Source of the DNA: a virus
Taxonomy: Duplodnaviria > Caudoviricetes
Length of the DNA stretch: 64,000 bases
Reading direction: 5' to 3' (one strand)
IMG/VR virus record: IMGVR_UViG_3300028591_000206
Coordinates: 1,941-65,940 of that record
The translations under genes were made by a program, and so were the position numbers. Below the pieces are notes generated by a model, which did not search any database, was not told the DNA's origin, and worked only from the letters and a program-made list of their open reading frames with translations. This document shows positions 21,201-52,849 of this stretch, one piece after another. Each line of letters begins with the position of its first letter. The stretch's first letter is position 1.

Positions 21201-21558
21201 TATCTTTATGTACTGGCCCAGGTACTTTATATCCATTGATTTCATCCATACCATCAAATACTAAATCTATTTGAATAGTACGTTTATGATATCCAGTTTT
21301 TTGCTTTTGAGAATTTTCTTGTCTTAATGTTTGGATATTTTGAGAAAATGACTCTGAAGAAACGTAAATAAATTCTGGTGGAATCATCATCGCAACATCG
21401 CCAATTGTTAAGTTATATTCATCATATAAATATCTATGATCATAACTTATATAATTGCTTTGCTCTAAAGGTTTAATCTGTCTCGCACTACTTGTGCGAG
21501 ACAGAGCATCAAACATTTCGAGACCTTGTTCAGTTGTAAAGTTAATTACATCAGACAT
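15226..21558 (-). CDS. 2110-aa baseplate hub / tail-associated lysin with degenerate NlpC/P60, GH73 glucosaminidase and SleB-like hydrolase domains
   Basis: GH73: 'GLDPRYILAHAILES...NNYFGIGAFD...YATDPEW' (~18480-18900); SleB-like 'IALTVATECEGE' (~18170); NlpC/P60-like 'FDDLG' (~19590); C-terminal hub-like region 'RVHLRMGYGSD...IINGTI...GQILCLGQPQVKPDDYLMIND'. Confidence 0.8.
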   Translation of the reverse strand: MSDVINFTTEQGLEMFDALSRTSSARQIKPLEQSNYISYDHRYLYDEYNLTIGDVAMMIPPEFIYVSSESFSQNIQTLRQENSQKQKTGYHKRTIQIDLVFDGMDEINGYKVPGPVHKDKDTYSNFYYVDGLRTLLAQFKLTPFLPLRNELLNDSYNIFVVALQSIVISTIEGFQNALTAHLTLQEVDMMPYIEMPNMMFKHTIDWDLFRYYIQSIITEEHEYKKLQSLPVNSDHTAFKLSLLSENVLATIVNNSSATVTKEESILAQVIEPSNYDVIINSNDYDVHITEFQCSYANMLTSIQMSEASSPTLQYLGGLDTQFNIVFETTDVTVVGKIEKCQIKNDLMVRSNPKVRGSIGFVKIESDFVTFCGSLFCTIESVETHTVPGIPGLYQVRLLCVSYDIAQSRREELNGFMPFNGKESSIDGLQKTGEALENESSNNKDQCIQQSLKGLMTKIYQDNYAEWKLRTGMEVYPDLRLPTYAEVNEAITNINAFRKYNNKDQLPYEAYPLQPSNISYGKGESNNNLPNNWLDAGGNTIYQNGNVPESPVYQGFVDPDFYVFYPNTYTSIYKELKAEENQEKQSNGSSISNLYSSPVRNTSVSGIIKEKYNPTYGDGENTDTKTTGFINLLRTKIGCHYEAIAEGEISDYRGEKFDDLGLITWGLKTMGILPDNFKRLKAKDVDSLDIFKAVSLQDIRRGDIISNDAKSWFGVATGYDKENNLAVINVNQVNGVLEEQVPFQIAYVYRIMPLQRDYEKQGTNQSNPYDSDGNQYPDENGTIEEKKKSLLETTEGYTSANPYGKDNGTETTTSSNDTNITEENKDEKDKEKDSEQKIDDAIQTEEEKIEEEKKKAEEENKKKAEEEKKKAEVEQNSSKATIDQDLGIWSPISASELNTFIASYCPADSPFQNHGDVFVKAGEESGLDPRYILAHAILESASGTSNIARKKNNYFGIGAFDTSPYASAHTFDSGLDKGIIGGAKWIADHYYNSKYQQKTLNQMRHNSSGHEYATDPEWHNKIAKIMDKMSKNLSAQYISGSAGTSSSTVTDNANTIKMKENERRNRAETAEDLAEITKRIELDQASISDLTLPDIEDDGSEWTNGSVALTEYKNMTTDEFNAIALTVATECEGETIACKMAMTQYIYDSIQCKYKGNGITAYIKNRDFTVDKTVQEIKDVEEAKACVQRVFQAGARWKKDYKVLAFTSMNNSNYANKYKNDKYEQIGSVNQHIFYGLKEESYSVGYNVAGHGVSEASSNSVTVARKYTINAVDLIDTNAFGKPIYIKSKHFDTHNSGVGKQWAEINNNLNRVNTAFVDDCQYSAKGRLVKAFPTFLFCILDDQAQWYDGRKLWTNYYVYKPVIDIQYHAANDMPTETAQITVTNTYHNLDRSSAALIKYSIAKDKEYNSVLDNMVSNATGKDFSINRWLYKNCGMLIGGLKITNRLIQMHSILFNHTKVREGARVHLRMGYGSDPLSLAPIINGTISGLTLGDQISITVTSDGHELIQSVTSDKTKDINNGALGLFGLGANQESSNIISEIMVKRTSWMNHLFFAKEWFEGSKYNIEHFGLYINDGERYFLQGGVDTGIYEQYDLLMNVYKAYDKDDFFNLARHFGYIYASPSVAGALGHDGEANIVFNQYNMTPWDVFQLCAQTAPEYLVKVEKYQFDSRLYYGLPFDLTKYRYDIINGTIYQECKANTQMHYIDSLTSIIENQISVSSRRSFTNAKVIYTRGKTPKATAVIHSDDTIDHSKQSTHIIDSSIVQDYLGLDSFNEFIGFRHGQRAARRLGISNLLYGWQQQYQGQILCLGQPQVKPDDYLMINDFYTALNGLALTREVIHSFNTRTGFTTSIIPGVIGFCPEQDSGNIELIAVFLKIYGEFTKYAQSRKLLKDNVERYVDLVTLMNKAQILEELGINGLQSQNKLFNNTKLWHTADTTATIAGDIAIAMTVYKFIRCCQNTGSIIKAIKSIYSVYKAADASFKTFTAAKSFFVVVRVISSINYVAKEFEAAEGTILAIGAASAPETLGIGFAVSVLITIMLEIAISTISSWVENRNVCVLLPLWWEGKPFIAGIKDGEKILLINDENAGSEENTGEEGVETDQDELSVEDN

Positions 21559-21563: not shown

Positions 21564-24500
21564 TTACTCCATTAATTGTGCAAACTTGTTTTCAAGCCAA
21601 TTATCTGTAATTTTAGAATTATCTCTAGTTATATTGACTTGACCTCCGTTCAACCCAACCGTATTCATTATATTTTGATATGATTTTGAATGTAATTTAT
21701 CATAACTTTGTGCTGATACTTTAAAATTAAAACCAGAATGAGAATCATGATAAATAGTTTTATTTTGTAAAATAGAAGGCGGTGCAATTTTTGGTGCTTT
21801 TGTTTGCTTTTTAACTAACTTAGCATCAGTAGGTTCATTATCATATTCTAGGCCATTTTTGTTATTAATATTTTTAACTTCGTTTTCTACTGACTTAGGC
21901 ATTTCAACATTTTTACTGTCTTTACTGTTGAATAAAGCATGTCCAGCAAGTCCAAGTAATGCTGTTCCTCCAAGTACCATTCCACCTATTTTAATGGTTT
22001 GACGAGCATCTGGAGATAAACTTTGTATTGATTCTCCAATACCACTTGCTAAAGTTTTTCTCTTTGTCTTAGAAGTAGCTTGTCTAGCAGATTCAATAGC
22101 ATTTTCTTTAGCTTGGCCAAGAAGTTCTTCTCCAGCTTGTTCTCCAAAAGCTGTAGCTGCTTCTGGATTAAATATTGCTTTGTAACTAGTTAATAAAGTT
22201 TCTTCATTTTTAAAATTAAGCACAGTTCCAGGAGAAACATTTTTCATGTGACTTAATATTTCTTTAGTATTAGAAGCCGCTAAATATTCTATAGAATCTC
22301 TTGGTAATATTTTCAACGCTTCATCTATTTCATTATTAACTAATTGTTGTTGTACACTTACTAAGTCACGAACTCTAGCACCAGTAAATTGACCATAACC
22401 AATTCTTACATTTGAATCTATTGTAGCATCGCCAAGTTTAATTTTAAAGTTGTTGTCTCTTGTAAAAGCATTCCATCCGAATTTATGTAGCATTTCTTCT
22501 TGAGGATTAGATGCTTTTTTAATAGAATCAAAAATCTTTTTAGTAGATTCCTTGACCTCTTTTTGCCAAGCTTCTTTTGCACTTGTAAATGCATTAGTTA
22601 TTGAAGTTTGTTTTTGAATTGTACTATTATAAAAATCTTCCGCTATTTTATTAATATTAGTATCTCTAATATTGATAAAATCATTAATTTCTTGAGAAAT
22701 TGCATTTGATAATTCAATGTCTTGTACCGATCTTGTTAAAAAATCTCTATTACCAATAGTAGCTCCGCTACCTTCAAGATACTGCACTACTGTATCTAAT
22801 GCATTATCTCCAGTAATTACAGATTTTCTTGGATGCCTAGCGATATCTTTATTGATTGAACGAATCAATTCTTTTGCGTTTGTAGCTTTAGTATTTATAT
22901 TACCATGCTCAATTCCATATTGAATACGTTCATGAAGATCACGTATTCTACGTTGTAATGCATCAGCATCATTGCCAGCTATATCAGACATTACAGTTCC
23001 AAGTTTTTTGTTTATTCCTCCGTAGCCTGGTATAATTTGATTTTGTTTAATCATTCGATTAAACTCTGATTTAAATTTATTACTTTCAAAATTGTCAAAT
23101 AACCACTGTAAATTATCCTCAGTAGAGACTGCTGCTATACGTCTAGATATTGCTAACCTAGAATCTTTTGAAAGTGATAAATCTCTAATATTTAAGTTAT
23201 GTTCTGGAGTATTTGGATTAGTAACATCAAGTAATCTACGTTTATGATTAGTTTTTATATTTTCATTTAGTTCTCTAATAGTTATTGCTGGTTGACCTTT
23301 TCGTTGTCCTAAATAAATAGTTTGTTTATCTATTTCTCCAGTAGCAAAATCATAGCTAAATCCAAATGGTCTTGGAACACGATTTTTTTCACCAGTTTCT
23401 CTAAAGCCTTCAAAAATAATGCCTTCAAAACCTGTATCTGTTTGATAAGTTAATATATCTCCTTGCCTAATTGATCTACCAAACATCAAAAACTTATCAT
23501 CAGTACGTGTTTTATAAGCTTCAAGTAACATTTTTTTAGTAGGTAAGTCAAGATCGCTCCCTTGCATAAATTGTTCAAGTTTCTCTGGTGTCATATCTAA
23601 AAGACTAGGAGCAATATCTGGCATTCCATGTCTAAAAACACCTTGATAACCTTGATATGCATTTTTCATTTGAGACATTTCATACAATGCACTAATGTAT
23701 GCGCTACCTAAATCAGCATCGCTTACTGTCTTTCCCTCTTTAATAGCATCACCAACAAGTGCATTCCATTCATCAAATGTTTTAGATAAGATATGTTGCG
23801 ATATTTGATTATTAGACATTTCATTAAATGCATCACTAGTAAAAAATATTCTTCTTGACCCTTCAACTAAACTATCAAGAGCACTTAATCTTTTTTTGAT
23901 ATCAATATTTTCTGCACCATTTGCATTAGCAAATAATTTAGTTACACCTACTCTCCATGCACTTGAATTAGTAAGTTTTTCAGCATCATGAACGTGTTTA
24001 GTATCAATACCTTTTTGTTCAAGAATTGTAAGAAGCCCTCCTGGTTCATCGTTAAATGTATATAACATTTCACGAATTTGCCTTAATTTTGTCAGTTCAT
24101 CACTTCTATCTTCAGCTAGACTTTGCATATATTGCATAGCGTTTCTTATTTCAAGATTTGGTTTAGAGTAATTACCAATATACTCTTTAGCAAATCTTGC
24201 TTGAATCGCAGCTTTGATCATATCTGGATTATGTATTGAAGAACCTAACACTTCATCAAAAGCTTTATATGCTTTTCTCATACTAGATGAATGAGCAATT
24301 AAAAGTTCTTTTATATCACTATATTCATCTTTTTCAAGCACATCCAACATGTCTTTAGGCATAGCTCCAAGAAATTTTGAAGCCGCTCTATTATATTCTG
24401 TACTTTTAAGGTCTTTTAATAAACTAGCTTTGAAATATGCTTCATCGCCGTATCTATATTCTTTGATAGAATCTTTAAGTGAATTTGCAAAAACATTTAA

Positions 24501-27500
24501 GTTAAATGAATTCATTTTATCAAATTGTGCATTTAACCTAATAGCTTCTTCTGAATTTTTAGCAAGTAATCCACCATTAGCTAAGAATTTTATAAATTCA
24601 TTATCTCCATCAAAATCAAGGTTTTGAAAAACACTAAATTGAGGGCCAAGGAATCTTATTTCTTTGCCTTTTATAGTTTCATCAAAATATATTCTAACTG
24701 GAAGGATACCAGTTTCATTAAAGAAAGGATAACGACCAACCATTCCAAGTATGCCGACTTCTTTTGCATATCTTTTACCAAGGTCATCAAAAATAGATTG
24801 GACATCTAATAAAAACTTTCTCTTAGATTCTTCAGAAAGTTTTCTATTAAGTGATTTAACAACAGTATCATCAAGACTTTCAAGACTACTACTTACTTTA
24901 AAATTATCACTTTTAAGATAATCTTCTAGTCTTTTAAAGAATATATTAGTAGCTTTTATATGCCTTTCTCCATTTTGCATTTTAATATTAGGGTCTAATA
25001 ACTTATGCATCGCATCTCTTGTTTTATTCATCCATTCTTTATGTTCCGTACCATCAAATGTTTGAAAAAACTTTTCTTCAAATATCTTTTCAAATTCACT
25101 ATTACTAATAATAAAATCAGATATTTGTTTTTCAGTTCTGCTTAAAGCATCGTAATTTTTTAAACCTCTTTTCTGACTAGAGAAATAATCTCTTAAAATC
25201 TCCATGCCAATATTACCAGGGTCCATTTCTGTTCCACGAAGTATATCTTCTCCAACAACAATGGCATTTTCAATAACATTACCAACTAATTTACCGTTTT
25301 TATCAAAATGTCTTAGATATTGTTCATATAAACGATTATTAGATGTTATGTTTAATAGACTAACAACATCATCTGTTATTTCAGCATTTTTAATGCTCAT
25401 TTTAGTGGCATTAAGTAAGTCATATCTGTTTTTATTTAATTTTAAATATTTATCCCAATCATCTGGATTAATTGCTTGATTCATATCAAGAGCATGAGTA
25501 AGATTATATGTTGTTTCTCTAAGTTCTCTTATTTCAGACACTGGTAATTCTAATGTTGGAACTATAGCATCTTTAGCTAATGCACCCGATGAATTTGGCA
25601 TCTTCATTTTATAAAAGGCTTTAGTAACTAATGAATCTTTATTTCCAGTACTTAATTCATCATCATAAGCATCAAATAAATCATTCAATGCGTCTTGAAT
25701 AGCTTTTGAATTATCTGTATTAGGTTTTAAGTCTTGTAGTTTTCTAAAAAACCTCATTGTTTTTTTAGTAGACTCTCCAAGAAACATTTCTTCTGAATCT
25801 GTGCGGACATAATGAAATGGTAATACTATTCCAGTTAAGTTTTTGTTTCCTTTAAATTCAAATTTACCATAATCTGAAAGGTCTAAATAAAAACTATTAC
25901 TATTAAATGCTAATTGGACATTATTATTATTCTGAATAGCTAAAGCTTTAATGTAATCTGTTGGTTCAGAATTTACTTTAAAGATAAAGTTAGCATATGA
26001 TTCTGCGCCACCACCTTTTGGTATGTTAGATAATAAATCTTTAGCATTTACATTAATCATATTCTTTTTTGATACATCAAGAGCTCCATGAACATAATCA
26101 AAGGATTCTAATAATCCAGTGAACATATTCATCTCATCTTTAGGGCTTAATTTACCTCTTCTATTTCTTACGATATCAGCCCATACTTTATTGATTTGTT
26201 TATAATCTTTCTTATTATAAATTAAACCAGCAATATTTTTATCATATTCTCCACTCTGAATATTTTCTCTTATTAATTCTGCAAGTTCTGCTCCATAACG
26301 TTCTGCTTTTTTATCATATTTAATTTTATATGTAATTTTTCCATCTATTATTTCTCTTATATTTGTTCTATCTTGCATTGAAAGAGCTTGATAAAATCTT
26401 TGGTCAATTTTAAAAGCTTGACCTTGGAAAGTATTCATTTGTTGTCTTTGAATAGATTGCATTGCAATATTATTCTTTTCAAATGAATCTATAATATTAA
26501 TTGCTTCTTGAGCTTTAGAATCTTTACTTAGTCTTAATCTATCAGTAAGTTCGTCAAGAACATTTGTTGCACCATTATCTAATGGATTATCAAACATCAA
26601 TGCGTCCTGTACAGGGTTATATGATAAATGACTCATTAATGTAGAACCATCTTTAAATTTAATAGCTCCACTACGTCCATCAAAAGAGCCATCCATGAAT
26701 GAATATAAAGTATTAATATCTTCTTCACTCTTAAATACTGATCTAATAATGTTCCATCTAGAATCTATAGCTGTATCGCTTAAGTGTTTTATAATATTAT
26801 TATTGCCTATTAAAACAGTTTTTAATCTAGTATCATTTGTTCTTGTAAAAGCATCAAAAACAGCATCTGAATATTGATTCATTAACGCAACATTCTTTTT
26901 TAGAGAACCTTGGTTTTCTAAACCAATAGTCGTCATTAAATCAATAATTTCTTTTTCTCTTTTAGCTGGGTCTAATGAAGTATAATAAGATAATGTCTCA
27001 ATTGTTGCTTTTTCTTCTCCAAACATGCCTTTAAAACCTTCAAGCTGTCTTTCCATTACAGCCAAGGTTTTTCCCATATTTGCAAGTTCTTCAGCGTTTT
27101 GTTCTGTAAACTTATGTATAGTCTGACCATTATATATAATATCTTGCCAGTGTTTTGAACCATTTTTACTTTTTACAAGTCTACGTCCTATTACAGTTCC
27201 GTTTTCAACTTTATTACCAACAAGTCCAGATAATATTCCAGATGTTTCTCTTATTTCTGGTTCTGAACCTAATTCAAAAATAGAACGTACTTGTGGCGAT
27301 TTAACAGTTTTAGGATCGCCTAATGCGAAGAAATCTTGATTAGCAAGAGAAGGTCTCATATAAGCTTTGCCTTCATATGTATTAATGTCTTTTGCCATTC
27401 TATCATATAGTTCAGATAAAGCTTTTTGATTAAGATTCCCAAATTTATTTTGTAAAAATACTAATGCTTCATCTTTTCCATGTCTAATTTCAGCATCACT

Positions 27501-30500
27501 AATAGACTGTACTGCACCTATAATATTTCTACGAGATGCAGTACGAGCATTGAACTGTTCACCAGCAGCACTAATAACTTGTTTATCCATGCTTTCGATT
27601 GAATCGAAATATTGTTTTGATGTATATAAATCACCAAAATGTATTCCAAGATTATTTTCAAGTTCTTGAGGATTATCAAAGAACATTTCATCTAATCTAT
27701 AACTTCTATAATTATCCCTTTGTGAATATGTAGGACGCATTTGAAGAGATGACCTACTATTATTCATCATTGCTGGAGCATAATTAACAAGCATTGTAGT
27801 ATTATGTGCAAAAGACTCACTATAAACAGCATTTAAATGAACTCTATTAGCAATAACATCTAATCCATAAGCTACTTCATCAGAAACATATCCATTTGAT
27901 TCTGAAGCTTGTGCCATAATTTGTAACAAACTTTTATCTCTCAAAGCACGAATTGCGTCAACTTCTATTGGGTCAAGAGATTTATATTTATTATTTAAAA
28001 TATTTTGTATAACGTTAGAATCAGCTCCTATACCACCAGTTTGAATAGTTAAATGTTTTTGATAAAAACCTTTAAATGGTTCAGAATTATATACTTTTTC
28101 TAATGGATTTTTTAAATAAAGATTTTTAGTGTCATAATTATTATGTAAATCATATTGTTCTGCAAATGCTTTATAGATACCTCTAATAGCATTTTCTGCT
28201 TGTAATGATGACTCTGAAGAAGCAGCTGTATATGCTTTATCAGTTGTTAACAAACGCATAATATCTCTTATACCGATATTTCCCTCTCCAGGGTCAATAG
28301 CGATAGCATGAGCATAACTTACATCCTTTGTTGATACTGAATGCATTCTAGCTAATTCACCACGTAAATTATAAGTTCCACTTATTTGAGGTGAAGCTTC
28401 TTCTGTCATTCTAGAAATATTAGGATTATTAAACTTAGCATTAGCTAATCCAAAATTTTCTTCTGAAGTAGCTGCATAGGCTTCATCTGCTCTTTGTCTT
28501 ATACTTGTAACAAAAGAACTGCCTTGATCTTTTATGCCTCCTCTAAGTACGTCATCTTTTTCATATACATTAAAAGAAAATGTATCATATCTATAAAAAT
28601 CATCTCCTTGTTTTACAAACACAGCTCTAGCTCCATGTCCTTCGTGCAGAACTCCGTTTTTATCAATATACGAAGATAATGCTTTGATATCTGCGTCTTC
28701 ACCAAGATCAAATTGTTTAAGATATGGTATTTCAAAATAAGATGCCATGCCTGTTAAAGCATCTTTTACTTGTCTATTAGTAGCATTAGGCTTAAGATTG
28801 GATAATGTATCAACTGTTTTAGAATAATATTTATCTGTAGTAAAAATTGCAAATGCAGATGCTTCTTCTCCTTGAGAACGATAAAATAAAGGTCTAATTT
28901 GTTTACTAGGCTCTAATCCTTCATTAAAGTTTTTAATTGCTGACTTCCATGTACTTTTAGCATTAGAATAGTAAATCATTCCAAATTCTGAAATGGCCTG
29001 TTCATTATAACCCATGCCAGATAATGTATTTGATATCCTTGAAAAATCATTATCAAATGATCCAGAAATAAGAGTGGTTCCACTTAAATGCTCTATTACA
29101 TTATTGAAAGACGAAACTAATTCTTTAGAAAGAGAATTGCCACTGACATTACTCATTTCTGAAGTTGCACTTTCAATGAAACGTTTATTATCTTTATTGA
29201 TTAATTTATTGATTAAACTTTCATCAATGTTATAAGCTTCAGCTAATTCTTGTCTATTGAATACTTTTTCTTCAAGACTTTCTTGTATAAATCCTACAGT
29301 ATCATTTCCTAAATCAGTTACATCTGATAAGTCTGCACGTAAATGACTAACAATAGCATCTGCTGTATGGAAAGGATTTTCAACCGCTCCATAATTATCT
29401 TGAATAGTTTTAAAAGCTTCTTTGGATAATAAGTCTCTTTCACGTAAATTTTCTGCAACTTTAATAAGCCTTGCAGAATTCTGTTTTCCTGTAAGGTTCT
29501 TGTCTGTAAAAGCTCTTAATAATTGTGTTGCACCATTACTATTCTCACTAATGTCAATTCTCGCAGATGAGCCATTACCTTTATCAATTGATACACTGAA
29601 TAAATCATGTATACTATATGAATTCCATTTAGATGGAGTAGTACGTGTAACAGAATTAGATTCAATATATAATTTTTTTAATTCATTAAATGCTATTGTT
29701 TGAGAAAGACTATTATTTAAAGGTTCAAGATTTTTATATGAATATTCAAAAAAATCTTTGTTCTTCTCAAAAATATCAAAAGCATGTTCCATTTTAAGTG
29801 GAATGTCATATGCTTCAATAGCAAGGTCATGATGACTAAGTTTTGTAGAACGTTTAGTTGTACTAAATACATTAACTACATTAGTTAAATCATTCTCTCT
29901 TGCATATTTAATAATATTCTCAGCATTATTTTCAGCATTAATGTTTTTAAGTAATACTCTTGATGTATTAATCTTATTTCCATTAACATCAAAAACATTC
30001 ATGCTTGAAACAGCGTCATCTGATAATGATGCTAAGTCTTGATATGCTTTATAATATTTTTTAAAAGACGTAAATCCACCATCGTCTTTAGTTACTTGAC
30101 CATGTTCAAAGAATCCATCTATAACTCTTCTAGCAACATCTCTGTCATGAACTGCTGCTTGTAATCCAAGATTAGCTTCTGATTTATTAACTAAAGTAGT
30201 ATATTTTTCAAAATATCTCTGTGCGTCTTCTTCATTCGCGAATGCTTTATATAAAGTCATATCTTTATGATGCACAGATTGTAATTTTACAATATATTGA
30301 TTGGCTGTATCTTTTATTGTTTTAGTTTGTTTATTTACATCTTCTATACTAAATCCAGTATAATCAGATTGGCCAAATCCAGTAAAAGTCCAATATTCAT
30401 TAGAGACTTGATGGCCATTGGTTACTTTATCACTAACAACAAGTAAATCTTGATGTCTGATATTACCTTTAGCATTAATTTTTATATAAGAGTCTTCAAG

Positions 30501-31769
30501 CTTTAATGTATTTGGATTAGATTGAACGTTATGTATTACATCTAAAGCTTTATCCGTAATGTTAAAATGAGTAGCTCTTGAATAATTGTTGGTTTCAATA
30601 TCGTTACCTATGTTTTCTATAAATCGTAAAACAGCAAGGTTATCTTCATATGCTATGTGAGCTTGCCCTTCTGCGTAAGTAGTTCCGTTTAACATAGCTT
30701 CTGTAACAGCTTCAAGAGAATTTAATCTAGGATTAGTAACACTAGGATTGACTTGTTTTACAATTTCACTGGCCGCAATATTATTTTGCTGTGCATATGC
30801 TTTAGCAGCATGATATGTATCTGCATATTGCAAGTTTTCTTGTAGTTTTGTTAGATTATGCTTATTAGCATATCTATTTAAAGTCTTTACATCAAAAGAA
30901 AGATTTTGTCCAACTATTACGCTGTTCTTTTTTGTTGTAAAGTCATTTAAATATTCAATTAAACCTTTTATTTGATCATCTCTATCTGTATTATAATGAG
31001 CGGCCATTGCTTCTATACCAGATTTAATATCTTCAACACTATCTGGTTTAGAAACATTTAATTGTTCAATAAAAGTAAATGTTTTATTATTCCATTCTCT
31101 TTCAACAGTTCTAAATCCATTAGGACCTAATGTACTATGACGAGAAGCTCTTTCCATGGCTGATGCTTCTGTTGAAGTGAGAGTTTCTCCTTTTATTTTC
31201 TTTTGTAAAACATCTTCAAGCCATTGTTTTTGTTCAGAATCGATACCAAAAAAGAACGATCCTTGTGGGTCAGCAATTTGATGAGCTCTGCTAAAATTCT
31301 TACTTACATAACCTTTATGGTGTTTTATTGTAAAAGCAATTTCTGTAATACCAGCAACATCAATAGCTCTATTATGAGCTACTCCAGCTTCATCAAGATA
31401 ATTAGTAGCTTCATTTATAAAATCACCAATTGTCTCTGTATCAAGCGCAAGAATATTGCCTCCATTTTTTAAAATATTATCAAGGTCAAACCAAGCTTGT
31501 CTGTTACGCCATATATTAGAAACATCATAGTTTTTAACATAATTAAATTTATTTGGACCTTGAAAGTCTTTTAAATTACTAAAATTAGCAAGCTTTGTAG
31601 CCCAGAATACATCACGAGCTTTCCAATATTCTGTAAAATATTTATCTGGTTTAGCTCCAATGCTGTTATAAAAATATTCTTTATTCATCCAGTTTAAGCT
31701 AGGATTATTATCAGTATAAGCAAATGTATCTGGTGCTTCATATTGACTTCCAAATAAATTAATAGGCAT
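21564..31769 (-). CDS. ~3400-aa putative virion RNA polymerase (two-barrel/DPBB type, single chain) with N-terminal DEDDh exonuclease and C-terminal hydrophobic helix
   Basis: NLDFDGD at 24603-24623, preceded by GRYP at 24726-24737 (beta'-type R-x-P ... NADFDGD spacing); beta-like segments YEGKAYMRPSLA (~27345-27380) and FKGMFGEEKAT (~27005-27035); ExoI DTET (31431-31442), ExoII GQNLSFD, ExoIII HIAYED. Start moved from TTG 31784 to ATG 31769, which has a GAGGAG RBS. Confidence 0.75.
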   Translation of the reverse strand: MPINLFGSQYEAPDTFAYTDNNPSLNWMNKEYFYNSIGAKPDKYFTEYWKARDVFWATKLANFSNLKDFQGPNKFNYVKNYDVSNIWRNRQAWFDLDNILKNGGNILALDTETIGDFINEATNYLDEAGVAHNRAIDVAGITEIAFTIKHHKGYVSKNFSRAHQIADPQGSFFFGIDSEQKQWLEDVLQKKIKGETLTSTEASAMERASRHSTLGPNGFRTVEREWNNKTFTFIEQLNVSKPDSVEDIKSGIEAMAAHYNTDRDDQIKGLIEYLNDFTTKKNSVIVGQNLSFDVKTLNRYANKHNLTKLQENLQYADTYHAAKAYAQQNNIAASEIVKQVNPSVTNPRLNSLEAVTEAMLNGTTYAEGQAHIAYEDNLAVLRFIENIGNDIETNNYSRATHFNITDKALDVIHNVQSNPNTLKLEDSYIKINAKGNIRHQDLLVVSDKVTNGHQVSNEYWTFTGFGQSDYTGFSIEDVNKQTKTIKDTANQYIVKLQSVHHKDMTLYKAFANEEDAQRYFEKYTTLVNKSEANLGLQAAVHDRDVARRVIDGFFEHGQVTKDDGGFTSFKKYYKAYQDLASLSDDAVSSMNVFDVNGNKINTSRVLLKNINAENNAENIIKYARENDLTNVVNVFSTTKRSTKLSHHDLAIEAYDIPLKMEHAFDIFEKNKDFFEYSYKNLEPLNNSLSQTIAFNELKKLYIESNSVTRTTPSKWNSYSIHDLFSVSIDKGNGSSARIDISENSNGATQLLRAFTDKNLTGKQNSARLIKVAENLRERDLLSKEAFKTIQDNYGAVENPFHTADAIVSHLRADLSDVTDLGNDTVGFIQESLEEKVFNRQELAEAYNIDESLINKLINKDNKRFIESATSEMSNVSGNSLSKELVSSFNNVIEHLSGTTLISGSFDNDFSRISNTLSGMGYNEQAISEFGMIYYSNAKSTWKSAIKNFNEGLEPSKQIRPLFYRSQGEEASAFAIFTTDKYYSKTVDTLSNLKPNATNRQVKDALTGMASYFEIPYLKQFDLGEDADIKALSSYIDKNGVLHEGHGARAVFVKQGDDFYRYDTFSFNVYEKDDVLRGGIKDQGSSFVTSIRQRADEAYAATSEENFGLANAKFNNPNISRMTEEASPQISGTYNLRGELARMHSVSTKDVSYAHAIAIDPGEGNIGIRDIMRLLTTDKAYTAASSESSLQAENAIRGIYKAFAEQYDLHNNYDTKNLYLKNPLEKVYNSEPFKGFYQKHLTIQTGGIGADSNVIQNILNNKYKSLDPIEVDAIRALRDKSLLQIMAQASESNGYVSDEVAYGLDVIANRVHLNAVYSESFAHNTTMLVNYAPAMMNNSRSSLQMRPTYSQRDNYRSYRLDEMFFDNPQELENNLGIHFGDLYTSKQYFDSIESMDKQVISAAGEQFNARTASRRNIIGAVQSISDAEIRHGKDEALVFLQNKFGNLNQKALSELYDRMAKDINTYEGKAYMRPSLANQDFFALGDPKTVKSPQVRSIFELGSEPEIRETSGILSGLVGNKVENGTVIGRRLVKSKNGSKHWQDIIYNGQTIHKFTEQNAEELANMGKTLAVMERQLEGFKGMFGEEKATIETLSYYTSLDPAKREKEIIDLMTTIGLENQGSLKKNVALMNQYSDAVFDAFTRTNDTRLKTVLIGNNNIIKHLSDTAIDSRWNIIRSVFKSEEDINTLYSFMDGSFDGRSGAIKFKDGSTLMSHLSYNPVQDALMFDNPLDNGATNVLDELTDRLRLSKDSKAQEAINIIDSFEKNNIAMQSIQRQQMNTFQGQAFKIDQRFYQALSMQDRTNIREIIDGKITYKIKYDKKAERYGAELAELIRENIQSGEYDKNIAGLIYNKKDYKQINKVWADIVRNRRGKLSPKDEMNMFTGLLESFDYVHGALDVSKKNMINVNAKDLLSNIPKGGGAESYANFIFKVNSEPTDYIKALAIQNNNNVQLAFNSNSFYLDLSDYGKFEFKGNKNLTGIVLPFHYVRTDSEEMFLGESTKKTMRFFRKLQDLKPNTDNSKAIQDALNDLFDAYDDELSTGNKDSLVTKAFYKMKMPNSSGALAKDAIVPTLELPVSEIRELRETTYNLTHALDMNQAINPDDWDKYLKLNKNRYDLLNATKMSIKNAEITDDVVSLLNITSNNRLYEQYLRHFDKNGKLVGNVIENAIVVGEDILRGTEMDPGNIGMEILRDYFSSQKRGLKNYDALSRTEKQISDFIISNSEFEKIFEEKFFQTFDGTEHKEWMNKTRDAMHKLLDPNIKMQNGERHIKATNIFFKRLEDYLKSDNFKVSSSLESLDDTVVKSLNRKLSEESKRKFLLDVQSIFDDLGKRYAKEVGILGMVGRYPFFNETGILPVRIYFDETIKGKEIRFLGPQFSVFQNLDFDGDNEFIKFLANGGLLAKNSEEAIRLNAQFDKMNSFNLNVFANSLKDSIKEYRYGDEAYFKASLLKDLKSTEYNRAASKFLGAMPKDMLDVLEKDEYSDIKELLIAHSSSMRKAYKAFDEVLGSSIHNPDMIKAAIQARFAKEYIGNYSKPNLEIRNAMQYMQSLAEDRSDELTKLRQIREMLYTFNDEPGGLLTILEQKGIDTKHVHDAEKLTNSSAWRVGVTKLFANANGAENIDIKKRLSALDSLVEGSRRIFFTSDAFNEMSNNQISQHILSKTFDEWNALVGDAIKEGKTVSDADLGSAYISALYEMSQMKNAYQGYQGVFRHGMPDIAPSLLDMTPEKLEQFMQGSDLDLPTKKMLLEAYKTRTDDKFLMFGRSIRQGDILTYQTDTGFEGIIFEGFRETGEKNRVPRPFGFSYDFATGEIDKQTIYLGQRKGQPAITIRELNENIKTNHKRRLLDVTNPNTPEHNLNIRDLSLSKDSRLAISRRIAAVSTEDNLQWLFDNFESNKFKSEFNRMIKQNQIIPGYGGINKKLGTVMSDIAGNDADALQRRIRDLHERIQYGIEHGNINTKATNAKELIRSINKDIARHPRKSVITGDNALDTVVQYLEGSGATIGNRDFLTRSVQDIELSNAISQEINDFINIRDTNINKIAEDFYNSTIQKQTSITNAFTSAKEAWQKEVKESTKKIFDSIKKASNPQEEMLHKFGWNAFTRDNNFKIKLGDATIDSNVRIGYGQFTGARVRDLVSVQQQLVNNEIDEALKILPRDSIEYLAASNTKEILSHMKNVSPGTVLNFKNEETLLTSYKAIFNPEAATAFGEQAGEELLGQAKENAIESARQATSKTKRKTLASGIGESIQSLSPDARQTIKIGGMVLGGTALLGLAGHALFNSKDSKNVEMPKSVENEVKNINNKNGLEYDNEPTDAKLVKKQTKAPKIAPPSILQNKTIYHDSHSGFNFKVSAQSYDKLHSKSYQNIMNTVGLNGGQVNITRDNSKITDNWLENKFAQLME

Positions 31770-31780
31770 ATTATTTCTCC

Positions 31781-34700
31781 TCAATAATAGTTTAAATTTC
31801 TAATTTGATTAGAAACTTCATTTCGAGAATCTTCTTGAATATTAAAAGTAGAGAAATCGTTATTAATTCCATTCATATATGATACATTAACGTTATCCAT
31901 TCCAGTATTGTTTAATAAACGAGTAAGCTGTGCTTGAACTTTTTTTGGATCATTTTTTATATTTAATTTAGGTATAGGTATATTTGTTTCATCAGCTTCA
32001 CGTTTATTATCAGTCCAAATATCAAATTCACCTGGGTCTAAATTGTTTAAACCTACCATTTTAATTTTAACATGATCAAGATTGGATTCTTCATTCCATC
32101 CAGACCAGTTTTCATCTGGTAAAGCATGTTTCTGGAAATATTCTGTAAGAGAAGGTTTTTCATCAACATGCATACCCCATGAAGCCTGTAATGCTCTTCT
32201 TAAATAGCTAGGTGCAATTCTTAGTATTTTTTGTTTTTCTTCTTCTGGAGCTTCAACTAATTTGGAATAATACTGTCTTTCTTTTTTAGGTAATGCAGAC
32301 ATTATGTTTCTTATATCATCACCTGGTTCATATCCATACATGGTACGATCAGCTGCTTGTTTATAAGATATTGCTTTTATGGCATTTAATGGTAATTTTT
32401 CTACTTTTCTATCGTTAGAAATTTCAGCAAGTTCACGATTAATTGCCCTAATTACTTCTTTTTTAGATTGATCTTTTTCTTCGTATTTAGGACTTCCATA
32501 TTTAAAATTATAATTTCCACGATGTTTGAAATCAAGTTTCACAAGACGCTTATAATTGTTCAGCTCTTGTCGTTTAGCTTTATTATCTTTTCCTTTTTGT
32601 TCTTGTTTTTCTATATAAGCTTCAACATCAAAATGATCTCGTTTTTTAGCTAATTCTTTGTATTTATTATATAATTTAGTGTTTTTAACATATTTTAGTG
32701 TATCAATGTAAGTATTCATTTCTTCTTGTTGTCTACGTCTTTTTGGTCTAAATTCACGATCCTTGTCTGACATTAAATGATGTATAGTAGTTCCTATTGC
32801 TGGTATAGTTGCACCGAAAATAGCACCTACAAATTTACCATAAGGATTTTTACCAGTCATACTGCCAAGAAATGCTCCTACCATTATTGCTCCTATAGGA
32901 TGCATAGAAGATAATTCGTTTGTAGTAGGAATAACATAATCTCTTATTGGATGACTCCATGATTTAAAATCTTTATTATAAACTTCTCGTTTACGGTATT
33001 GTTCATAAGGACTACGTATCTGGAAAAATTTATCTCCGATAAATGGAAGTTTAGCAGCGCTATGTGTTAATGTTTCCATCATTGAACCAAAAGCAATACT
33101 TCCTTCAGAATATCTTGCATGGATACCAGCTGGAGAGTTATCATTTTCTTTTTCTTTAGCTAGGCCTTTTTTAAGCATACGTCTGTTAAGATTAGTTCCT
33201 TTAACATTAACAATAGCTCTGATTGATTGAGTAGAGTCTTTATTATATTTGTTTCTTTCGTCTGCATCATATTGAATAGTAATACTTTGACCAGGTTTAA
33301 GATATTTTCTCAATTCATCATTTGCAGCTTCATTCATAGTTTTGCCAGTACGTTTTGTACGCATCTTACCAGTTTTTTTATTTTTTTCTTTTTTTTCTTT
33401 TACTGTAGGAGCATATAATGTACTATTTGATTCAGAAACATTAATACCAGCAAATTTAATAGCATGTTCTTTACCATATTCATTAACGATAATGGTATTA
33501 TTATCAATAATATCTTTAACAGTAACTTTTTCTGATTTTAAATTAGATGTTTTAAATTTATAATCATATACTCTTAAAGGTTCTTTTTGTTCTTGCATAC
33601 GTTCACGCGCTGCTTTAACTTCTCTCTTTTCTTTTTCTGTTAAATGAGCGTGTGATATTTGAGACGAAATATCTTTAAACTCTTGAGAATATGGTGCTGT
33701 GTCAGCTAATATTTTATATTTATCAACAAGAGAATATAAATCTCCTCTTGAAATTTCACCAGATTTAATACCGTTATAGATATCCATTTTTGCATCATTA
33801 AGATTTTGGATACTTGAACGTAAATCTTTTTTATTAAATTTTATTCGTGCTTTATATAATTCTTCTGGATTATCTTGATTGTAATAATAAATATAGCCTC
33901 TACCTTTAGTATTCTTCATAGCGTATAAATCATAATTCATTTCATAATAATCTTGATTTCTTACGTTATGGCCTTTTTTAAGAGTTTCAAATTCTTTAGA
34001 ATCAACACCACGAATATTAATTAAAGTTTTACCAGTACTTGAATGATAATCTTTTATTACAGCATCAACAACGCCAGTAATATCATGTTGTTCATCATGG
34101 AATTTTGTTCTTGCTTTTAATAAAACTTTATTATCTCTAAAATTATCTAAAATTCTAGATACAAATTCTTCTATTGGATGTAAATCTTGTATTTCATATT
34201 TATCATTTATGATTTCTTGTGGTCTTTTATCTTTCTTTAATGCTTTTATATTGTTTTCTTGTTCATATGTTAAATTTGTATCTTGATGTAAAAAGTGTCT
34301 TACATGAGCTGAACGTGAATTAACAAGCATACTTGCACTAATGTTAAATGAAAAATCAATATTATTTAATTTTTCATAAGCATCTCCTGGTAGTCTTTCT
34401 TCACCATTCATTATTTTAGAATATGGGTCTCCATGTAAATAATCAATAAAATAATTAGAACCTGGCATCCAAGTAGGCATTGTATTTCTAATAGGATTAA
34501 GATATTCTGTATTCTTATCTTTTTTGTGTATAAAACGTCTAGCAATTTCAGAAAGCTCTCCTCCTAATCCTCCAAGATTTGTATCCCAAAATGAACGATT
34601 AGCGCTATATGTATAGCTTGAATTTTCTACTTTTACAGAACCTACATTTTGAGTTCCAGTAAACATTGATTGAATTAAAAATCCTTTAAGACCATATATA

Positions 34701-37700
34701 TTACCAATGTCGTTAAATTCTTCTCCTATATTCCATAAAATATCATTATTTGCTTTTATAGGTTCTTGTTGTTGATATCCTCTTTCGTATTCATTAATAT
34801 CAACTCGTTGATTAGTACCATATATTTTATTTAATGAATAGTGTTTTATTTCTTCATTTACTTTATAAAGATTAAGATTTTCTGGAACATCAACAATAGA
34901 AATACTACCAGATGGTGTAACGTATACATCTAATGCAGTATTATAACGGTCATAATCTCTATAAGGTAATGATGATGTTTGTAATGGACTAGAATATTCT
35001 TTAGCTTTAGTAAATAAAGTTTGTCTAAAGTTATCAAGATTAGAATATGGTAATGTACGAACCGGTGTAGCTTGTCCATTATTATAAGCAACAGTATATG
35101 AACGTAATGCATTATCGTATAAAGGAGTTTGTTTAAACGATGAAAATGTATTATTTACAGGAACAGCATTAGTAGAATTATTTAAAATTTGTTGAACTAA
35201 GAACAAATCTTGTAGTCTTAATCCAGCTGCTTTATGATATTGTTCTTGTGTTCTTGCATTAATTTGATTAAATGTACTTGTATCTACAAATGCTCTTTCT
35301 ATAGCTTTTTGTATATCAGAAATAAACCCACCTTTTGCTTCTGCAAAATTGGATGATTGCCCAGTCATTAATAATTGACTAGGTTTTTCATCTTGTGGAT
35401 TTACTGGTTTTAAAGTACCGTCTGGATTCCAGTACTCTTTGTGCATTTTTTTACGATATATTTGACCTATAGTACCAGAAACTAAAGGACCAATTAATGG
35501 TATATTCTCACCTTTAGGTGCTGTCTCTGGATAAGGTCTATCGTTTCTATGTTTCTTATCCCAATGATGAGGATCAGTAATAAAGTGTCTAATCGGAGCT
35601 AATGGACTAACTAAATTAGGATACCATACGTTTTGATAGTATTCTTTTCTAGAACCATACATTGTATCACTAAATTTAGTATCAGCTTCTATACGACGAT
35701 ATATATTTGGTCTCCAATGGTCTATTTTTGCACCAGTAAATGGAGTATTTGAAACAGACCAATAACGATTTTTACGTATTGGATCATAACCTTTTTCTAT
35801 GTATTCTTTTCTTTCTTCTGCTGTTTGTCCTAAACCAAGTTGATATATAATAGGTAATTCAGTAAAGTTATCAGAACCTGGAGTCATTTCTTGAAGATAT
35901 TTAAAGATTTTTGTAAATCCTAATGTATCACCTATTCCATGTATACCAATATCTATAGGTTTAACAATATCACGCATTAATGTTTTAGTAAGTGTATCTG
36001 TTTTGCCTTCTTTTTTTTCTTTATTGTTAGTAAATATTGGTTCAGAAAAATAATCTATCATTCCAGGAACTTGTGTTAGCATATATACAGGCAATGCTCT
36101 TTTTAGCAATAAATTTTGTACTAAGTCTTTAGTAGAATGTTTAGAATCAAGACTAAGTCCTAAATTTACAGTAGCTAATCCAGTATCAAGAGCGTTAAAA
36201 ACATCATATAACATTGAAGAACTTTCATTGAAATACTTATTCATATTTCCTTCTGCATCAAATCCAGCAAAAAGTTGTCCAACGAATTCTTTTATATCTT
36301 CTGTAAATTTTTCTGTATTTTTATCAGTAATGTCTTGAAATAAGTCTTGTATATTTTTACCTTGTTTAGTAATAACAATATTTTTACCACGAATTTTTAC
36401 GCCATTTTTAGTAATATAATCATCAAAACCTTTACCAAATGCCATATTATATGATTTATCTCTAATTTCAGACAATGCTGTATCATAGTCTTTAAATTGG
36501 AAATTGTTAGTTCTAAATGCATTTGATCGTGTTGCGTTGTATAATAAGTCATCAAACAAATTATCTACATTGGACATTTCTCCATAGTCAAAGTACATAC
36601 TGCTTTTCAAATCTTGAACATTTTTAAATTCTTGAAAGCCAATATCAAAATGTCTACCGAATTTATTTCTTATTCTTTCTATTGGTGACATTGTAAAACC
36701 AGATACTGCTTCATATTCTTCTGCTGTTAAATTTGGCGAATAATATTTTTTAGCTTTATCACCAATTTGTTTTACTGTATCACTTACAGCTTCATTCATA
36801 CTATCTCTATTTAAGTCATATCCGCCCATCGTACGCATTATAGCCACAGAATGAGGTAACTTAAATTCTTTATCAGCATTTGTAATATCCCATGCATGAT
36901 ATCCAGAACCAAGAAACTCTTCGGTTCCTTCTGTTCCTAAAGCATATAAATTTCCACGAGAAAATAACAGATGAAATGTTTCATCTGGTTTATTAAACTT
37001 TTTTTGTAAAGATGTACTTATATCATCGCCAAGACGACTACCTTGACCAGAAATATATGGAGAATATGCATCAACACCATTTATTAATGCAAATGGAACA
37101 TCTCTTCGATGAAATATATTATCAAACGGAGTAACTTTAATCATACTATCTATTGGGTTAAATCCAAGCACTGGCAGACCAAAATCTTTTCTTAATGAGT
37201 CAGAAAAAAAAGATAGTGCATCTTTGCCCATCATATAGTTTATGATTTTATCCTGTTGTTCATTTATATTAATTGATTTATCAATGATAAATCTTTTCCA
37301 AACATCATCGAAATTACCAAGAGTACCAATACGATTGCCATCAGCATATTTATGTCTAGCATCAGATAAAAATTCTTCTATTGTACTTTTAATAGTTTTA
37401 CCGTTTTGCCCTATTGTTTCATTAATGTTAAGATTGTATTTATCAAATAAGATTTTTTCATTAAGGCCTTCTTTAAATACCAGTTCGTGTTTTTGTTTAT
37501 CAAAAGTTTCAAAAATATCTCCTAAAAGAAGAGCTCTATAATTTGTTCGTTTTAATTGTGCTTGAGCTGTTTCATCACTTAAAGATAATGATTCTACAAA
37601 ATCTTTCATTAAGTTAGCACTTGCTTTATTACCAGCACTACCTAACTTATTATTAGAAATATCTTGTGTAATATTATTCATTGTTAAGATGCTTTGAACA

Positions 37701-38347
37701 ATATCAGATTTTCTAAGACTAGTATTTCTTGTTTTAATATATCGTTCACCAGTTTTTTGAAGTTCTTGTATACGTTCTTTAACGATTTTATCTATCTCAT
37801 TTTGTGAATGACCTTGACCAGCAAGAGATTCTTCTATTGTTTTACGAATATTAATAATTTGTGCTTGTGAATATCCTTTAGTTTCTTTTTGTAGCATTTG
37901 AGTAAGTATATTAACATCTGTTACAGTATCGTTAATAACTCTTCTTATATTGGTAGTATATAATTCTTTTCTAGCAAAAGATTCTTTTAAGTCTTGCCAT
38001 AAATCATATCCTAAAGAAGATACTTTTTTAGAATTAAATAAACTATGATCTGGACGCAAAAATTCTTTTGTATTACCTAAAGCCCAGTCTTTCATAACTT
38101 TAGAACGACGATATCCTTCGTTAGAAGACATTTCTGCAAATGCTGCACCAGCTTCTTTTAAAGAGCCAAAAACAGTACGTAAAACACCACTCCTGTATAA
38201 ACCATAACCGCCACCTATAACAAGACCAGCAATAATTGCGTTCTCAAGAGTACTGTTTTTATTTGTATTTTGTTTATCTTTAACAGTTTGTTTATTTAAT
38301 AAATCGTGATCATGTTTCTGTTTTAATTTTTTGTTTTCTAAAGCCAT
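31781..38347 (-). CDS. 2188-aa tape-measure/ejection-like protein with degenerate PD-(D/E)XK and thermonuclease (SNase) domains
   Basis: Follows the two tail chaperone genes; N-terminal hydrophobic 'AIIAGLVIGGGYGLY' and C-terminal glycine-zipper 'IGAIMVGAFLGS...FVGAIFGATIPAIG'; 'ITGVVDAVI' (~34065) and 'IIDNNTI...IKFAGINVSE...NLNRRMLKKGLA' (~33155-33535). Confidence 0.65.
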   Translation of the reverse strand: MALENKKLKQKHDHDLLNKQTVKDKQNTNKNSTLENAIIAGLVIGGGYGLYRSGVLRTVFGSLKEAGAAFAEMSSNEGYRRSKVMKDWALGNTKEFLRPDHSLFNSKKVSSLGYDLWQDLKESFARKELYTTNIRRVINDTVTDVNILTQMLQKETKGYSQAQIINIRKTIEESLAGQGHSQNEIDKIVKERIQELQKTGERYIKTRNTSLRKSDIVQSILTMNNITQDISNNKLGSAGNKASANLMKDFVESLSLSDETAQAQLKRTNYRALLLGDIFETFDKQKHELVFKEGLNEKILFDKYNLNINETIGQNGKTIKSTIEEFLSDARHKYADGNRIGTLGNFDDVWKRFIIDKSININEQQDKIINYMMGKDALSFFSDSLRKDFGLPVLGFNPIDSMIKVTPFDNIFHRRDVPFALINGVDAYSPYISGQGSRLGDDISTSLQKKFNKPDETFHLLFSRGNLYALGTEGTEEFLGSGYHAWDITNADKEFKLPHSVAIMRTMGGYDLNRDSMNEAVSDTVKQIGDKAKKYYSPNLTAEEYEAVSGFTMSPIERIRNKFGRHFDIGFQEFKNVQDLKSSMYFDYGEMSNVDNLFDDLLYNATRSNAFRTNNFQFKDYDTALSEIRDKSYNMAFGKGFDDYITKNGVKIRGKNIVITKQGKNIQDLFQDITDKNTEKFTEDIKEFVGQLFAGFDAEGNMNKYFNESSSMLYDVFNALDTGLATVNLGLSLDSKHSTKDLVQNLLLKRALPVYMLTQVPGMIDYFSEPIFTNNKEKKEGKTDTLTKTLMRDIVKPIDIGIHGIGDTLGFTKIFKYLQEMTPGSDNFTELPIIYQLGLGQTAEERKEYIEKGYDPIRKNRYWSVSNTPFTGAKIDHWRPNIYRRIEADTKFSDTMYGSRKEYYQNVWYPNLVSPLAPIRHFITDPHHWDKKHRNDRPYPETAPKGENIPLIGPLVSGTIGQIYRKKMHKEYWNPDGTLKPVNPQDEKPSQLLMTGQSSNFAEAKGGFISDIQKAIERAFVDTSTFNQINARTQEQYHKAAGLRLQDLFLVQQILNNSTNAVPVNNTFSSFKQTPLYDNALRSYTVAYNNGQATPVRTLPYSNLDNFRQTLFTKAKEYSSPLQTSSLPYRDYDRYNTALDVYVTPSGSISIVDVPENLNLYKVNEEIKHYSLNKIYGTNQRVDINEYERGYQQQEPIKANNDILWNIGEEFNDIGNIYGLKGFLIQSMFTGTQNVGSVKVENSSYTYSANRSFWDTNLGGLGGELSEIARRFIHKKDKNTEYLNPIRNTMPTWMPGSNYFIDYLHGDPYSKIMNGEERLPGDAYEKLNNIDFSFNISASMLVNSRSAHVRHFLHQDTNLTYEQENNIKALKKDKRPQEIINDKYEIQDLHPIEEFVSRILDNFRDNKVLLKARTKFHDEQHDITGVVDAVIKDYHSSTGKTLINIRGVDSKEFETLKKGHNVRNQDYYEMNYDLYAMKNTKGRGYIYYYNQDNPEELYKARIKFNKKDLRSSIQNLNDAKMDIYNGIKSGEISRGDLYSLVDKYKILADTAPYSQEFKDISSQISHAHLTEKEKREVKAARERMQEQKEPLRVYDYKFKTSNLKSEKVTVKDIIDNNTIIVNEYGKEHAIKFAGINVSESNSTLYAPTVKEKKEKNKKTGKMRTKRTGKTMNEAANDELRKYLKPGQSITIQYDADERNKYNKDSTQSIRAIVNVKGTNLNRRMLKKGLAKEKENDNSPAGIHARYSEGSIAFGSMMETLTHSAAKLPFIGDKFFQIRSPYEQYRKREVYNKDFKSWSHPIRDYVIPTTNELSSMHPIGAIMVGAFLGSMTGKNPYGKFVGAIFGATIPAIGTTIHHLMSDKDREFRPKRRRQQEEMNTYIDTLKYVKNTKLYNKYKELAKKRDHFDVEAYIEKQEQKGKDNKAKRQELNNYKRLVKLDFKHRGNYNFKYGSPKYEEKDQSKKEVIRAINRELAEISNDRKVEKLPLNAIKAISYKQAADRTMYGYEPGDDIRNIMSALPKKERQYYSKLVEAPEEEKQKILRIAPSYLRRALQASWGMHVDEKPSLTEYFQKHALPDENWSGWNEESNLDHVKIKMVGLNNLDPGEFDIWTDNKREADETNIPIPKLNIKNDPKKVQAQLTRLLNNTGMDNVNVSYMNGINNDFSTFNIQEDSRNEVSNQIRNLNYY

Positions 38348-52819: not shown

Positions 52820-52849
52820 AGCTCTATTTTTATTTTATAATATAACTAT

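Follow-up and report, generated by a model that had tools for sequence, protein, structure and literature searches.

The 64,000-nucleotide stretch of DNA analyzed here (hereafter the window; positions 1,941 to 65,940 of IMG/VR virus record IMGVR_UViG_3300028591_000206, itself a 65.9-kb fragment rated 31% complete) carries on its minus strand the gene of a giant protein that likely unites an active-looking DEDDh 3'-5' exonuclease with an RNA polymerase centre on one tail-borne polypeptide, an assessment that concerns the identity of the exonuclease and not its substrate. Judged from sequence comparisons, the protein appears to belong to the tail module of an uncultured jumbo myovirus of ~200 kb related to Bacillus phage 0305phi8-36, and it is probably an RNA polymerase delivered by the tail and equipped with a live exonuclease, because its gene sits in the slot occupied in that phage by gp146 and its C-terminus is homologous to the C-terminus of this virion protein. 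The relationship to a tape-measure-like virion protein, positional as well as C-terminal, is absent from the initial annotation of this DNA, which had noticed exonuclease motifs ahead of a putative RNA polymerase.

The gene (21564..31769, minus strand, stop codon included) is taken to start at ATG 31769, which is preceded by a ribosome-binding site (GGAG at 31780-31777) at a 7-base spacer and, just upstream, by the TGA of the preceding gene. Mechanical listing of open reading frames (ORFs) had it begin at a TTG at 31784 (ORF 21564-31784), and all residue numbers given below count from that TTG and not from the ATG. With ATG 31769 and its GGAG accepted as the real start, the protein has 3,401 aa, and it is identical to a 3,401-aa database entry (P0002).

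Near its N-terminus, the protein contains a complete DEDDh catalytic set (D115, E117, D298, H376 and D381). ExoI (LALDTET, aa 112, with D115 and E117; 31431..31451, minus strand) lies on strand beta1 of the AlphaFold2 (AF2) model described below, ExoII (VGQNLSFD, aa 291, with N294 and D298; 30891..30914, minus strand) at the start of the helix following model strand 205-209, and ExoIII (AHIAYED, aa 375, with H376 and D381; 30642..30662, minus strand) at the start of model helix 295-307, which we take to be the canonical placement for the DnaQ fold. All three motifs, with their four acidic residues and the His, were found where the initial annotation had seen them, on a single minus-strand ORF, and since ExoIII is of the H-x-A-x-x-D type, with His and not Tyr, the domain is placed among DEDDh rather than DEDDy enzymes. 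The five catalytic residues are invariant in 24 close homologues (3,319-3,648 aa; 31-56% identity in the exonuclease region) and near-invariant in 84 relatives that represent 50%-identity clusters and whose overall identity averages about 20%: D115, E117 and N294 are each present in 84/84, H376 and D381 in 83/84, and the position of D298 is D in 82 and E in 2. A full-length alignment of 58 sequences, with a mean column identity of 16%, has 28 invariant columns, eight of them inside the exonuclease domain; the I-T-E-I strand after ExoI is also conserved, as it is in DnaQ-like exonucleases. The DEDDh active site is under strong purifying selection, and this pattern of conservation fits a working enzyme, not a relic.

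The structure predicted for this compact and expressible domain of about 340 aa (aa 84-425; 30510..31535, minus strand) points the same way. When AF2 was run on aa 84-425 with an alignment of 11 sequences (A1, the window protein plus ten homologues), the model reached a predicted local distance difference test score (pLDDT) of 85.4 and a predicted template modelling score of 0.85; with no alignment, pLDDT was only 37. In Foldseek searches against the PDB, the top ranks were taken by oligoribonuclease, RNase T, DnaQ domains, Exonuclease I, REXO2 and Cas2-DEDDh (E about 2e-3, probability 1.0). VIA-align compared the model with 48,161 representative chains, and all 50 matches that it listed were DnaQ-fold 3'-5' exonucleases with Z scores of 12.2-8.1, headed by a DNA polymerase chain (Z 12.2) and including the exonuclease domain of Staphylococcus aureus DinG (Z 11.7), Cas2-DEDDh (Z 11.4 over 164/164 residues), Escherichia coli epsilon (Z 11.3 over 172/174) and TREX1 (Z 11.1); 3'hExo and the CBASS-associated Cap18 are further neighbours found by Foldseek or VIA-align. 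A PolC-type DNA proofreading domain (23%) is among the highest sequence identities in the structural matches listed, and the best viral structure matches include a UniProt fragment with the automatic name 'YprB ribonuclease H-like domain-containing protein'. At the sequence level, PHROG 192 ('DNA polymerase exonuclease subunit') matches aa 259-428 with E 8e-6, and hhalign against E. coli DnaQ aligned ExoII alone, weakly, to epsilon 'vihNaaFD' (E 0.029). Extra helices and a beta-hairpin are inserted in the interval between ExoI and ExoII. The N-terminal domain is thus modelled as an intact DEDDh exonuclease with an RNase H-like fold, the identity that the initial annotation had proposed; the extent given there (30620-31460) was right as to location, the model span being slightly wider.

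How widely is this exonuclease shared, and does it travel with the polymerase centre? Among 1.84 billion representative proteins, 78 matched a profile built on the polymerase region at E <= 1e-3, nearly all of them 2,900-4,200 aa long. The public names of family members are 'hypothetical protein' or none; the contigs that encode family members range, where lengths were seen, from about 10 kb to 218 kb. Iterated hidden Markov model (HMM) searches placed the exonuclease in 84 of 85 long members, at aa ~57-450, with the barrel at ~aa 2,000-2,700, and the single exception (2,730 aa) looks N-terminally truncated. DEDDh and DFDGD motifs, whose co-occurrence the initial annotation had suggested looking for, are thus found together throughout the family apart from this one protein, both active sites are equally invariant, and the combination of exonuclease and barrel appears from these alignments to be conserved in at least 84 related phage lineages. 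A search for free-standing relatives of the exonuclease gave one match of near-domain length, a gene fragment on a 1.9-kb contig, and no cultured relative came up when the N-terminus and the polymerase region were each compared by tblastn with 50,697 phage records. In the window protein, about 1,900 residues separate the N-terminal exonuclease from the barrel, so that 'fused' here means carried by the same giant protein and not lying in adjacent domains. The proposal that the exonuclease is joined to the N-terminus of a putative RNA polymerase holds in that both the DFDGD and the alignment to the beta' barrel belong to the same polypeptide; it has to be qualified with respect to this distance and to the polymerase identity, which stands at the level of motifs.

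The polymerase centre itself is marked by a candidate beta'-like double-psi barrel (DPBB-A; aa 2344-2400, G-R-Y-P ... Q-N-L-D-F-D-G-D; 24585..24755, minus strand), delimited by conservation and hhalign, which holds the DFDGD metal-binding motif (aa 2390-2394; 24603..24617, minus strand), found by pattern search as N-x-D-F-D-G-D in most relatives. The best-conserved 50 residues of the whole protein are aa 2351-2400 (RYPFF...LPVR...G.E.RFLGPQFS..QNLDFDGD), and G2344, R2351, P2353, D2390, D2392 and D2394 are invariant in 89 sequences of the region. The R-x-P sits about 39 residues ahead of N-x-D-F-D-G-D, and R2351 and P2353 align with N-R-A-P of beta'. Together, R-x-P and D-x-D-x-D make up five of the eight residues that are invariant across all two-barrel polymerases, their equivalents in Rpb1 being R446 and P448 (R-x-P) and D479, D481 and D483 (the metal site) (PMC2919709). 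By hhalign, the region aligns with residues 422-468 of E. coli beta', which contain the NADFDGD barrel (E 0.003 with 11 sequences, 5e-4 with 58), and with residues 721-787 of P23-45 gp96, around the DFDGD at residue 779 (E 2e-3); crAss-like gp66 and E. coli beta gave no alignment. Behind the barrel, the motifs AAIQARFAKEYIGNYSKPNLEIR and LEQKGIDTKH (aa 2525-2600; 23985..24212, minus strand) include two invariant stretches (aa 2533-2547 and 2589-2597) with K2533, I2536, G2537, S2540, E2589, Q2590 and K2596 invariant or nearly so; from the order of elements in gp96 (PMC10770324), they may represent the bridge helix and the beginning of the trigger loop. The ESM Atlas offered weak leads only, the nearest named cluster being one with PF05183 RdRP (score 0.81). 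Motifs and weak profile alignments taken together, it is very likely that aa 2344-2400 belong to an RNA polymerase.

That this polymerase should be borne by the tail is suggested by the genomic position of its gene. Gene order in this part of the window is that of gp137-gp147 in 0305phi8-36, one to one, and the giant gene is the second of two giants between the chaperones and the baseplate hub. The upstream giant (31781..38347, minus strand; 2,188 aa) is the orthologue of the 0305phi8-36 virion protein gp145 (blastp 33% identity over 1,056 aa, E 6e-165), and the downstream gene (15226..21558, minus strand; 2,110 aa) encodes a baseplate hub/lysin of the gp147 type (phrog_20474 E 4e-229; blastp against the gp147 N-terminus E 3e-9), relatives' versions of which carry Glucosaminidase or lysozyme Pfam domains. 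Flanked in this way by orthologues of gp145 and gp147, the giant gene occupies the slot of gp146, a protein annotated in GenBank EF583821.1 as 'hypothetical tape measure protein; identified as virion protein by mass spectrometry'. The two proteins are also linked by a homologous C-terminal module (aa 3240-3406; 21567..22067, minus strand): an HMM of the last ~165 residues, in a search of 13 tail proteins, matches gp146 aa 2386-2528 (E 4.5e-11), spanning a Gly-rich hydrophobic segment and a terminal ...D.S..T.NWLE.KF motif. Scanned for hydrophobicity at a strict threshold, this Gly-rich segment was not scored as a membrane helix. The full-length family HMM gave nothing significant in gp145 or gp146, the A2 profile matched nowhere in the 0305phi8-36 genome, and D-x-D-x-D is absent throughout the 2,537 aa of gp146. 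From these comparisons, we read the window protein as a counterpart of gp146 with a polymerase centre and a clear exonuclease, features that in gp146 would be lacking or degenerate.

In gp146 itself (L013:32736-40349), LDIETTG at aa ~1222, GQNVADAD at ~1439 and HLARAD at ~1683 follow one another in the order of ExoI, ExoII and ExoIII. An exonuclease domain was considered for this protein and is not claimed, profile support not being significant and the motifs not being cleanly colinear, so that they serve as no more than a lead towards an exonuclease in a phage that can be cultivated; no other cultured homologue of gp146 was found with which to judge the conservation of these exonuclease-like motifs.

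IMG/VR yielded one relative, G001 (210,314 bp, rated 100% complete). This complete relative encodes a DnaE-type Pol III alpha (a 1,155-aa ORF, 50817-54284, plus strand, locus L020; PF07733 E 1e-71) and no family A or B polymerase, and a PF00929 search of the genome detected no other RNase_T-type or epsilon-like exonuclease. A 904-aa ORF close to one of its contig ends (L021:3147-5861, plus strand) carries FRSP...GGADFDGD and an N-terminal SAP/Rho-N-like helix pair and matches PHROG 8308 and 0305phi8-36 ORF099 'hypothetical DNA-directed RNA polymerase' (E 1e-19). By sequence, this ORF is probably a YonO-like second, non-virion polymerase of the lineage, and ORF099 is probably the YonO-like enzyme noted for 0305phi8-36 (PMC7824862; PMC2919709). 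A direct repeat of about 105-108 bp joins the contig ends of G001 (L021 1-208; the last ~170 bases of L031), which suggests a circular or terminally redundant assembly.

What, then, might a 3'-5' exonuclease be doing at the head of such a protein? By analogy with P23-45 gp96, the giant protein would be packed in the virion and would leave the tail together with the DNA or just ahead of it, and its polymerase would, again as in P23-45, transcribe the first-entering genes, after which a YonO-like small polymerase, present in the complete relative, could take over. In this setting, the exonuclease could act on the leading end of the phage DNA, removing the 3'-ended strand and exposing a single-stranded template; if terminal repeats are present, the same trimming could also make annealable ends. 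Tape measure proteins have their C-termini at the tail tip, and an N-terminal domain of a protein so oriented would adjoin the DNA end. Where a 3'-5' exonuclease digests a duplex from its end, the 5'-ended strand is left unpaired, and genes transcribed towards the end are read from this strand; in 0305phi8-36, the left terminal repeat has its genes oriented in just this way, towards the terminus. The presence of a PolC-type DNA proofreading domain among the highest sequence identities would also suit such a role. In P23-45, the tape-measure-fused enzyme transcribes the first-entering genes, the gene of the second polymerase included. The virion polymerase gp66 of phi14:2 transcribes single-stranded or denatured DNA and not M13 double-stranded DNA, native phage double-stranded DNA being used weakly, and QDE-1 shows a template preference like that of gp66 (bioRxiv 10.1101/2020.03.07.982082). 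If the exonuclease does prepare the incoming DNA end, it would help to explain how single-chain polymerases that prefer single-stranded DNA gain access to the template strand. This role is nevertheless offered tentatively, as one that falls somewhat short of an even chance.

Several observations weigh against parts of the picture drawn so far. For the exonuclease, the Pfam models DNA_pol_A_exo1 (E 0.004-0.012) and RNase_T (E 0.15) both stayed under the cut-off, and PDB searches, by phmmer as well as by hmmsearch with a profile of the region, gave irrelevant matches only; with these sequence models not significant and PHROG 192 alone reaching E 8e-6, membership in the DEDDh family rests on fold and motifs. 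For the polymerase, no Pfam, PHROG or PDB profile matches the region, hhalign probabilities are low (6-31%), and the candidates for the second barrel (G-N-K2049...K2055 and K1585/E1591/K1592), highly conserved or invariant as they are, did not align to beta; in Rpb2, the second barrel contributes the basic K979 and K987 and the acidic D837. Virion presence would follow from a distant relative that has the C-terminus only in common with the window protein, and the true tape measure may be either of the two giant genes. The structural neighbours of the exonuclease include DNA and RNA enzymes alike and do not discriminate its substrate. Finally, it would be plainly costly for a phage to bring along a nuclease that attacks the end of its own DNA.

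The same domain might instead work on RNA, as a transcript proofreader or backtrack rescuer that trims the nascent 3' end when the polymerase has stalled or misincorporated, in which capacity it would replace Gre/TFIIS-assisted cleavage, a service comparable to that of nsp14 in the coronavirus replicase or of DP1 in PolD. The joint presence of exonuclease and barrel in 84/85 long relatives, with active sites equally invariant, would be natural for such a partnership, the RNA exonucleases Orn, RNase T, 3'hExo and REXO2 are among the structural neighbours, and PolD (PMC4996933) provides a two-barrel polymerase paired with an exonuclease. Set against this, the two modules lie about 1,900 residues apart, P23-45 gp96 and crAss-like gp66 function with no exonuclease, a handful of pre-early transcripts should not require high fidelity, and in sequence identity DNA proofreading domains come closest, all of which makes us regard RNA editing as rather doubtful. 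Were it true, it would constitute a new solution to transcript proofreading, and an in-cis 3'-end editor of this kind would define the first lineage of multisubunit-type RNA polymerases with a built-in DnaQ proofreader, a rarer version being an injected PolD-like DNA polymerase; an outcome of this sort strikes us as unlikely.

It is also conceivable that the exonuclease has nothing to do with the polymerase and is delivered as a counter-defence or host-takeover enzyme, which at entry would attack nucleic acids of the host, RNAs or DNAs of its defences, or short oligonucleotides used in signalling. An ejected protein would arrive before any phage gene expression, and the DEDDh enzymes Orn and CBASS-associated Cap18, both among the structural matches, do act on short oligonucleotides. 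A tethered enzyme present in one copy per tail is, however, ill-suited to bulk degradation, no defence-related family was matched in searches that did not extend to PADLOC, and its strict pairing with the polymerase in this family suggests that the two share a task; we therefore hold this role to be quite unlikely. Work on the entering DNA end is the role that we favour.

Could the DFDGD region not be a polymerase at all, the protein being a tape-measure-like structural component that merely carries an exonuclease? The missing profile matches, the low hhalign probabilities and the failure to identify a second barrel would be accounted for at once. Yet, over about 89 divergent sequences, no part of the 3,400-aa protein is better conserved than R-x-P ... 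N-x-D-F-D-G-D, alignment brings this stretch into register with the beta' and gp96 active sites, and invariant motifs follow at the expected place of the bridge helix. In addition, P23-45 gp96 was itself first recognised from its conserved DFDGD alone (PMC10770324), so that missing profile matches are normal for polymerase families of this kind, and a purely structural protein seems very improbable. Lastly, the two-barrel core could in principle be PolD-like, an injected enzyme that makes DNA or primers and has the DnaQ domain as its proofreader, given that DnaQ-type domains are classic partners of DNA polymerases, that exonuclease domains of DNA polymerases head the structural matches, that PolD proves a two-barrel core able to copy DNA, and that the complete relative has a DnaE with no separate epsilon-like exonuclease in the PF00929 search, but we consider this scarcely credible, because that relative's DnaE-type enzyme is a dedicated replicase, the gene lies in the tail module with a C-terminus common to a virion protein, and all phage single-chain two-barrel enzymes tested to date make RNA.

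The remaining genes of the tail module bear out the relationship of the window phage with 0305phi8-36 and with Moorella phage MTATph1, its nearest cultured relatives, to each of which its tail sheath (phrog_16991, E 1e-148) is about 30% identical. By blastp, a sheath paralogue corresponds to 0305phi8-36 gp137, the gene at 46948-47787 to gp138, the tail sheath to gp139, the tail tube to gp140 (47% identity) and a tail-tube paralogue (41484-43103, minus strand) to gp141. Two ORFs (40695-41477 and 40034-40702, minus strand) match the N- and C-terminal ends, respectively, of the 558-aa gp142, and two adjacent paralogues of 234 and 193 aa (38310-39595, minus strand; PHROGs 29368 and 29362, cross-matching) correspond to the 'tail chaperonin' proteins gp144 and gp143. 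The cassette of three giant genes is kept in all ten relatives whose DNA was examined. The gp141 counterpart has a peptidoglycan-binding or endolysin-like C-terminal segment (aa 351-445) with several PHROG endolysin matches, and relatives carry PG_binding_1. Among the tail-fibre genes of the window lies a reverse transcriptase gene (52850-53839, minus strand; phrog_1423 E 5e-105), consistent with a diversity-generating retroelement.

RNA polymerases delivered by the phage itself are on record for N4-like, crAss-like, phiKZ-like and P23-45-like phages, in no case with a reported nuclease, and the new element would be a DnaQ-type exonuclease added to this known kind of tail- or virion-delivered enzyme. 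The initial annotation was aware of no described two-barrel RNA polymerase with such a domain, and full-text literature searches for an exonuclease on a virion RNA polymerase or a tape measure likewise found no paper on the fusion; the word 'exonuclease' is absent from the gp66 preprint, the P23-45 paper (PMC10770324) and the 2026 N4 paper. With the DnaQ-like DEDDh enzymes (epsilon, PolC, DinG, Cas2-DEDDh, TREX1, RNase T and oligoribonuclease), the window domain has in common the fold (Z 10-12) and the motifs DxE, NxxFD and HxAxxD; it differs from them in an identity of only 10-23%, in the extra conserved insert between ExoI and ExoII (GSFFFGID...SAMERASRHST) and in its context, which is a tail protein, whereas those enzymes work in a replisome or an RNA-decay pathway. 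The 0305phi8-36 gp146 has the same slot and ~140 homologous C-terminal residues, but it has 2,537 aa and no D-x-D-x-D. PolD, with its two-barrel core in DP2 and the partner subunit DP1, and coronavirus nsp14 ExoN resemble the window protein in pairing a polymerase with a dedicated 3'-5' exonuclease, and nsp14 is a DEDDh enzyme too. The fold of DP1 is, by contrast, Mre11-like and different from that of DnaQ, nsp14 serves a right-hand RNA-dependent polymerase, and neither system is carried in a virion tail. DP1 is described as a proofreading exonuclease subunit on a separate chain.

Also comparable are phi14:2 gp66 and N4 gp50, large virion-delivered polymerases within multi-domain ejection proteins like the one described here, gp66 being moreover a single-chain two-barrel enzyme; both come from podoviruses and have no exonuclease domain, gp66 could not be aligned with the window protein, and gp50 is a T7-like right-hand polymerase. 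A further parallel is P23-45 gp96 (also in P74-26, G20c and TSP4; PMC10770324), likewise a giant tail-module protein with a DFDGD two-barrel centre, from a phage that, like the lineage of the window, encodes a second, small polymerase elsewhere in its genome. There, however, the phage is a siphovirus, the polymerase lies at the N-terminus, a metallopeptidase and no exonuclease accompanies it, and similarity is confined to the barrel, whereas in the myovirus protein the core would sit at about aa 2,000-2,600, preceded by the DEDDh domain. Seen in this light, the 2024 discovery of a joined tape measure and polymerase would reach beyond its few Thermus siphoviruses and take in a large group of jumbo myoviruses that are kin to a Bacillus phage.

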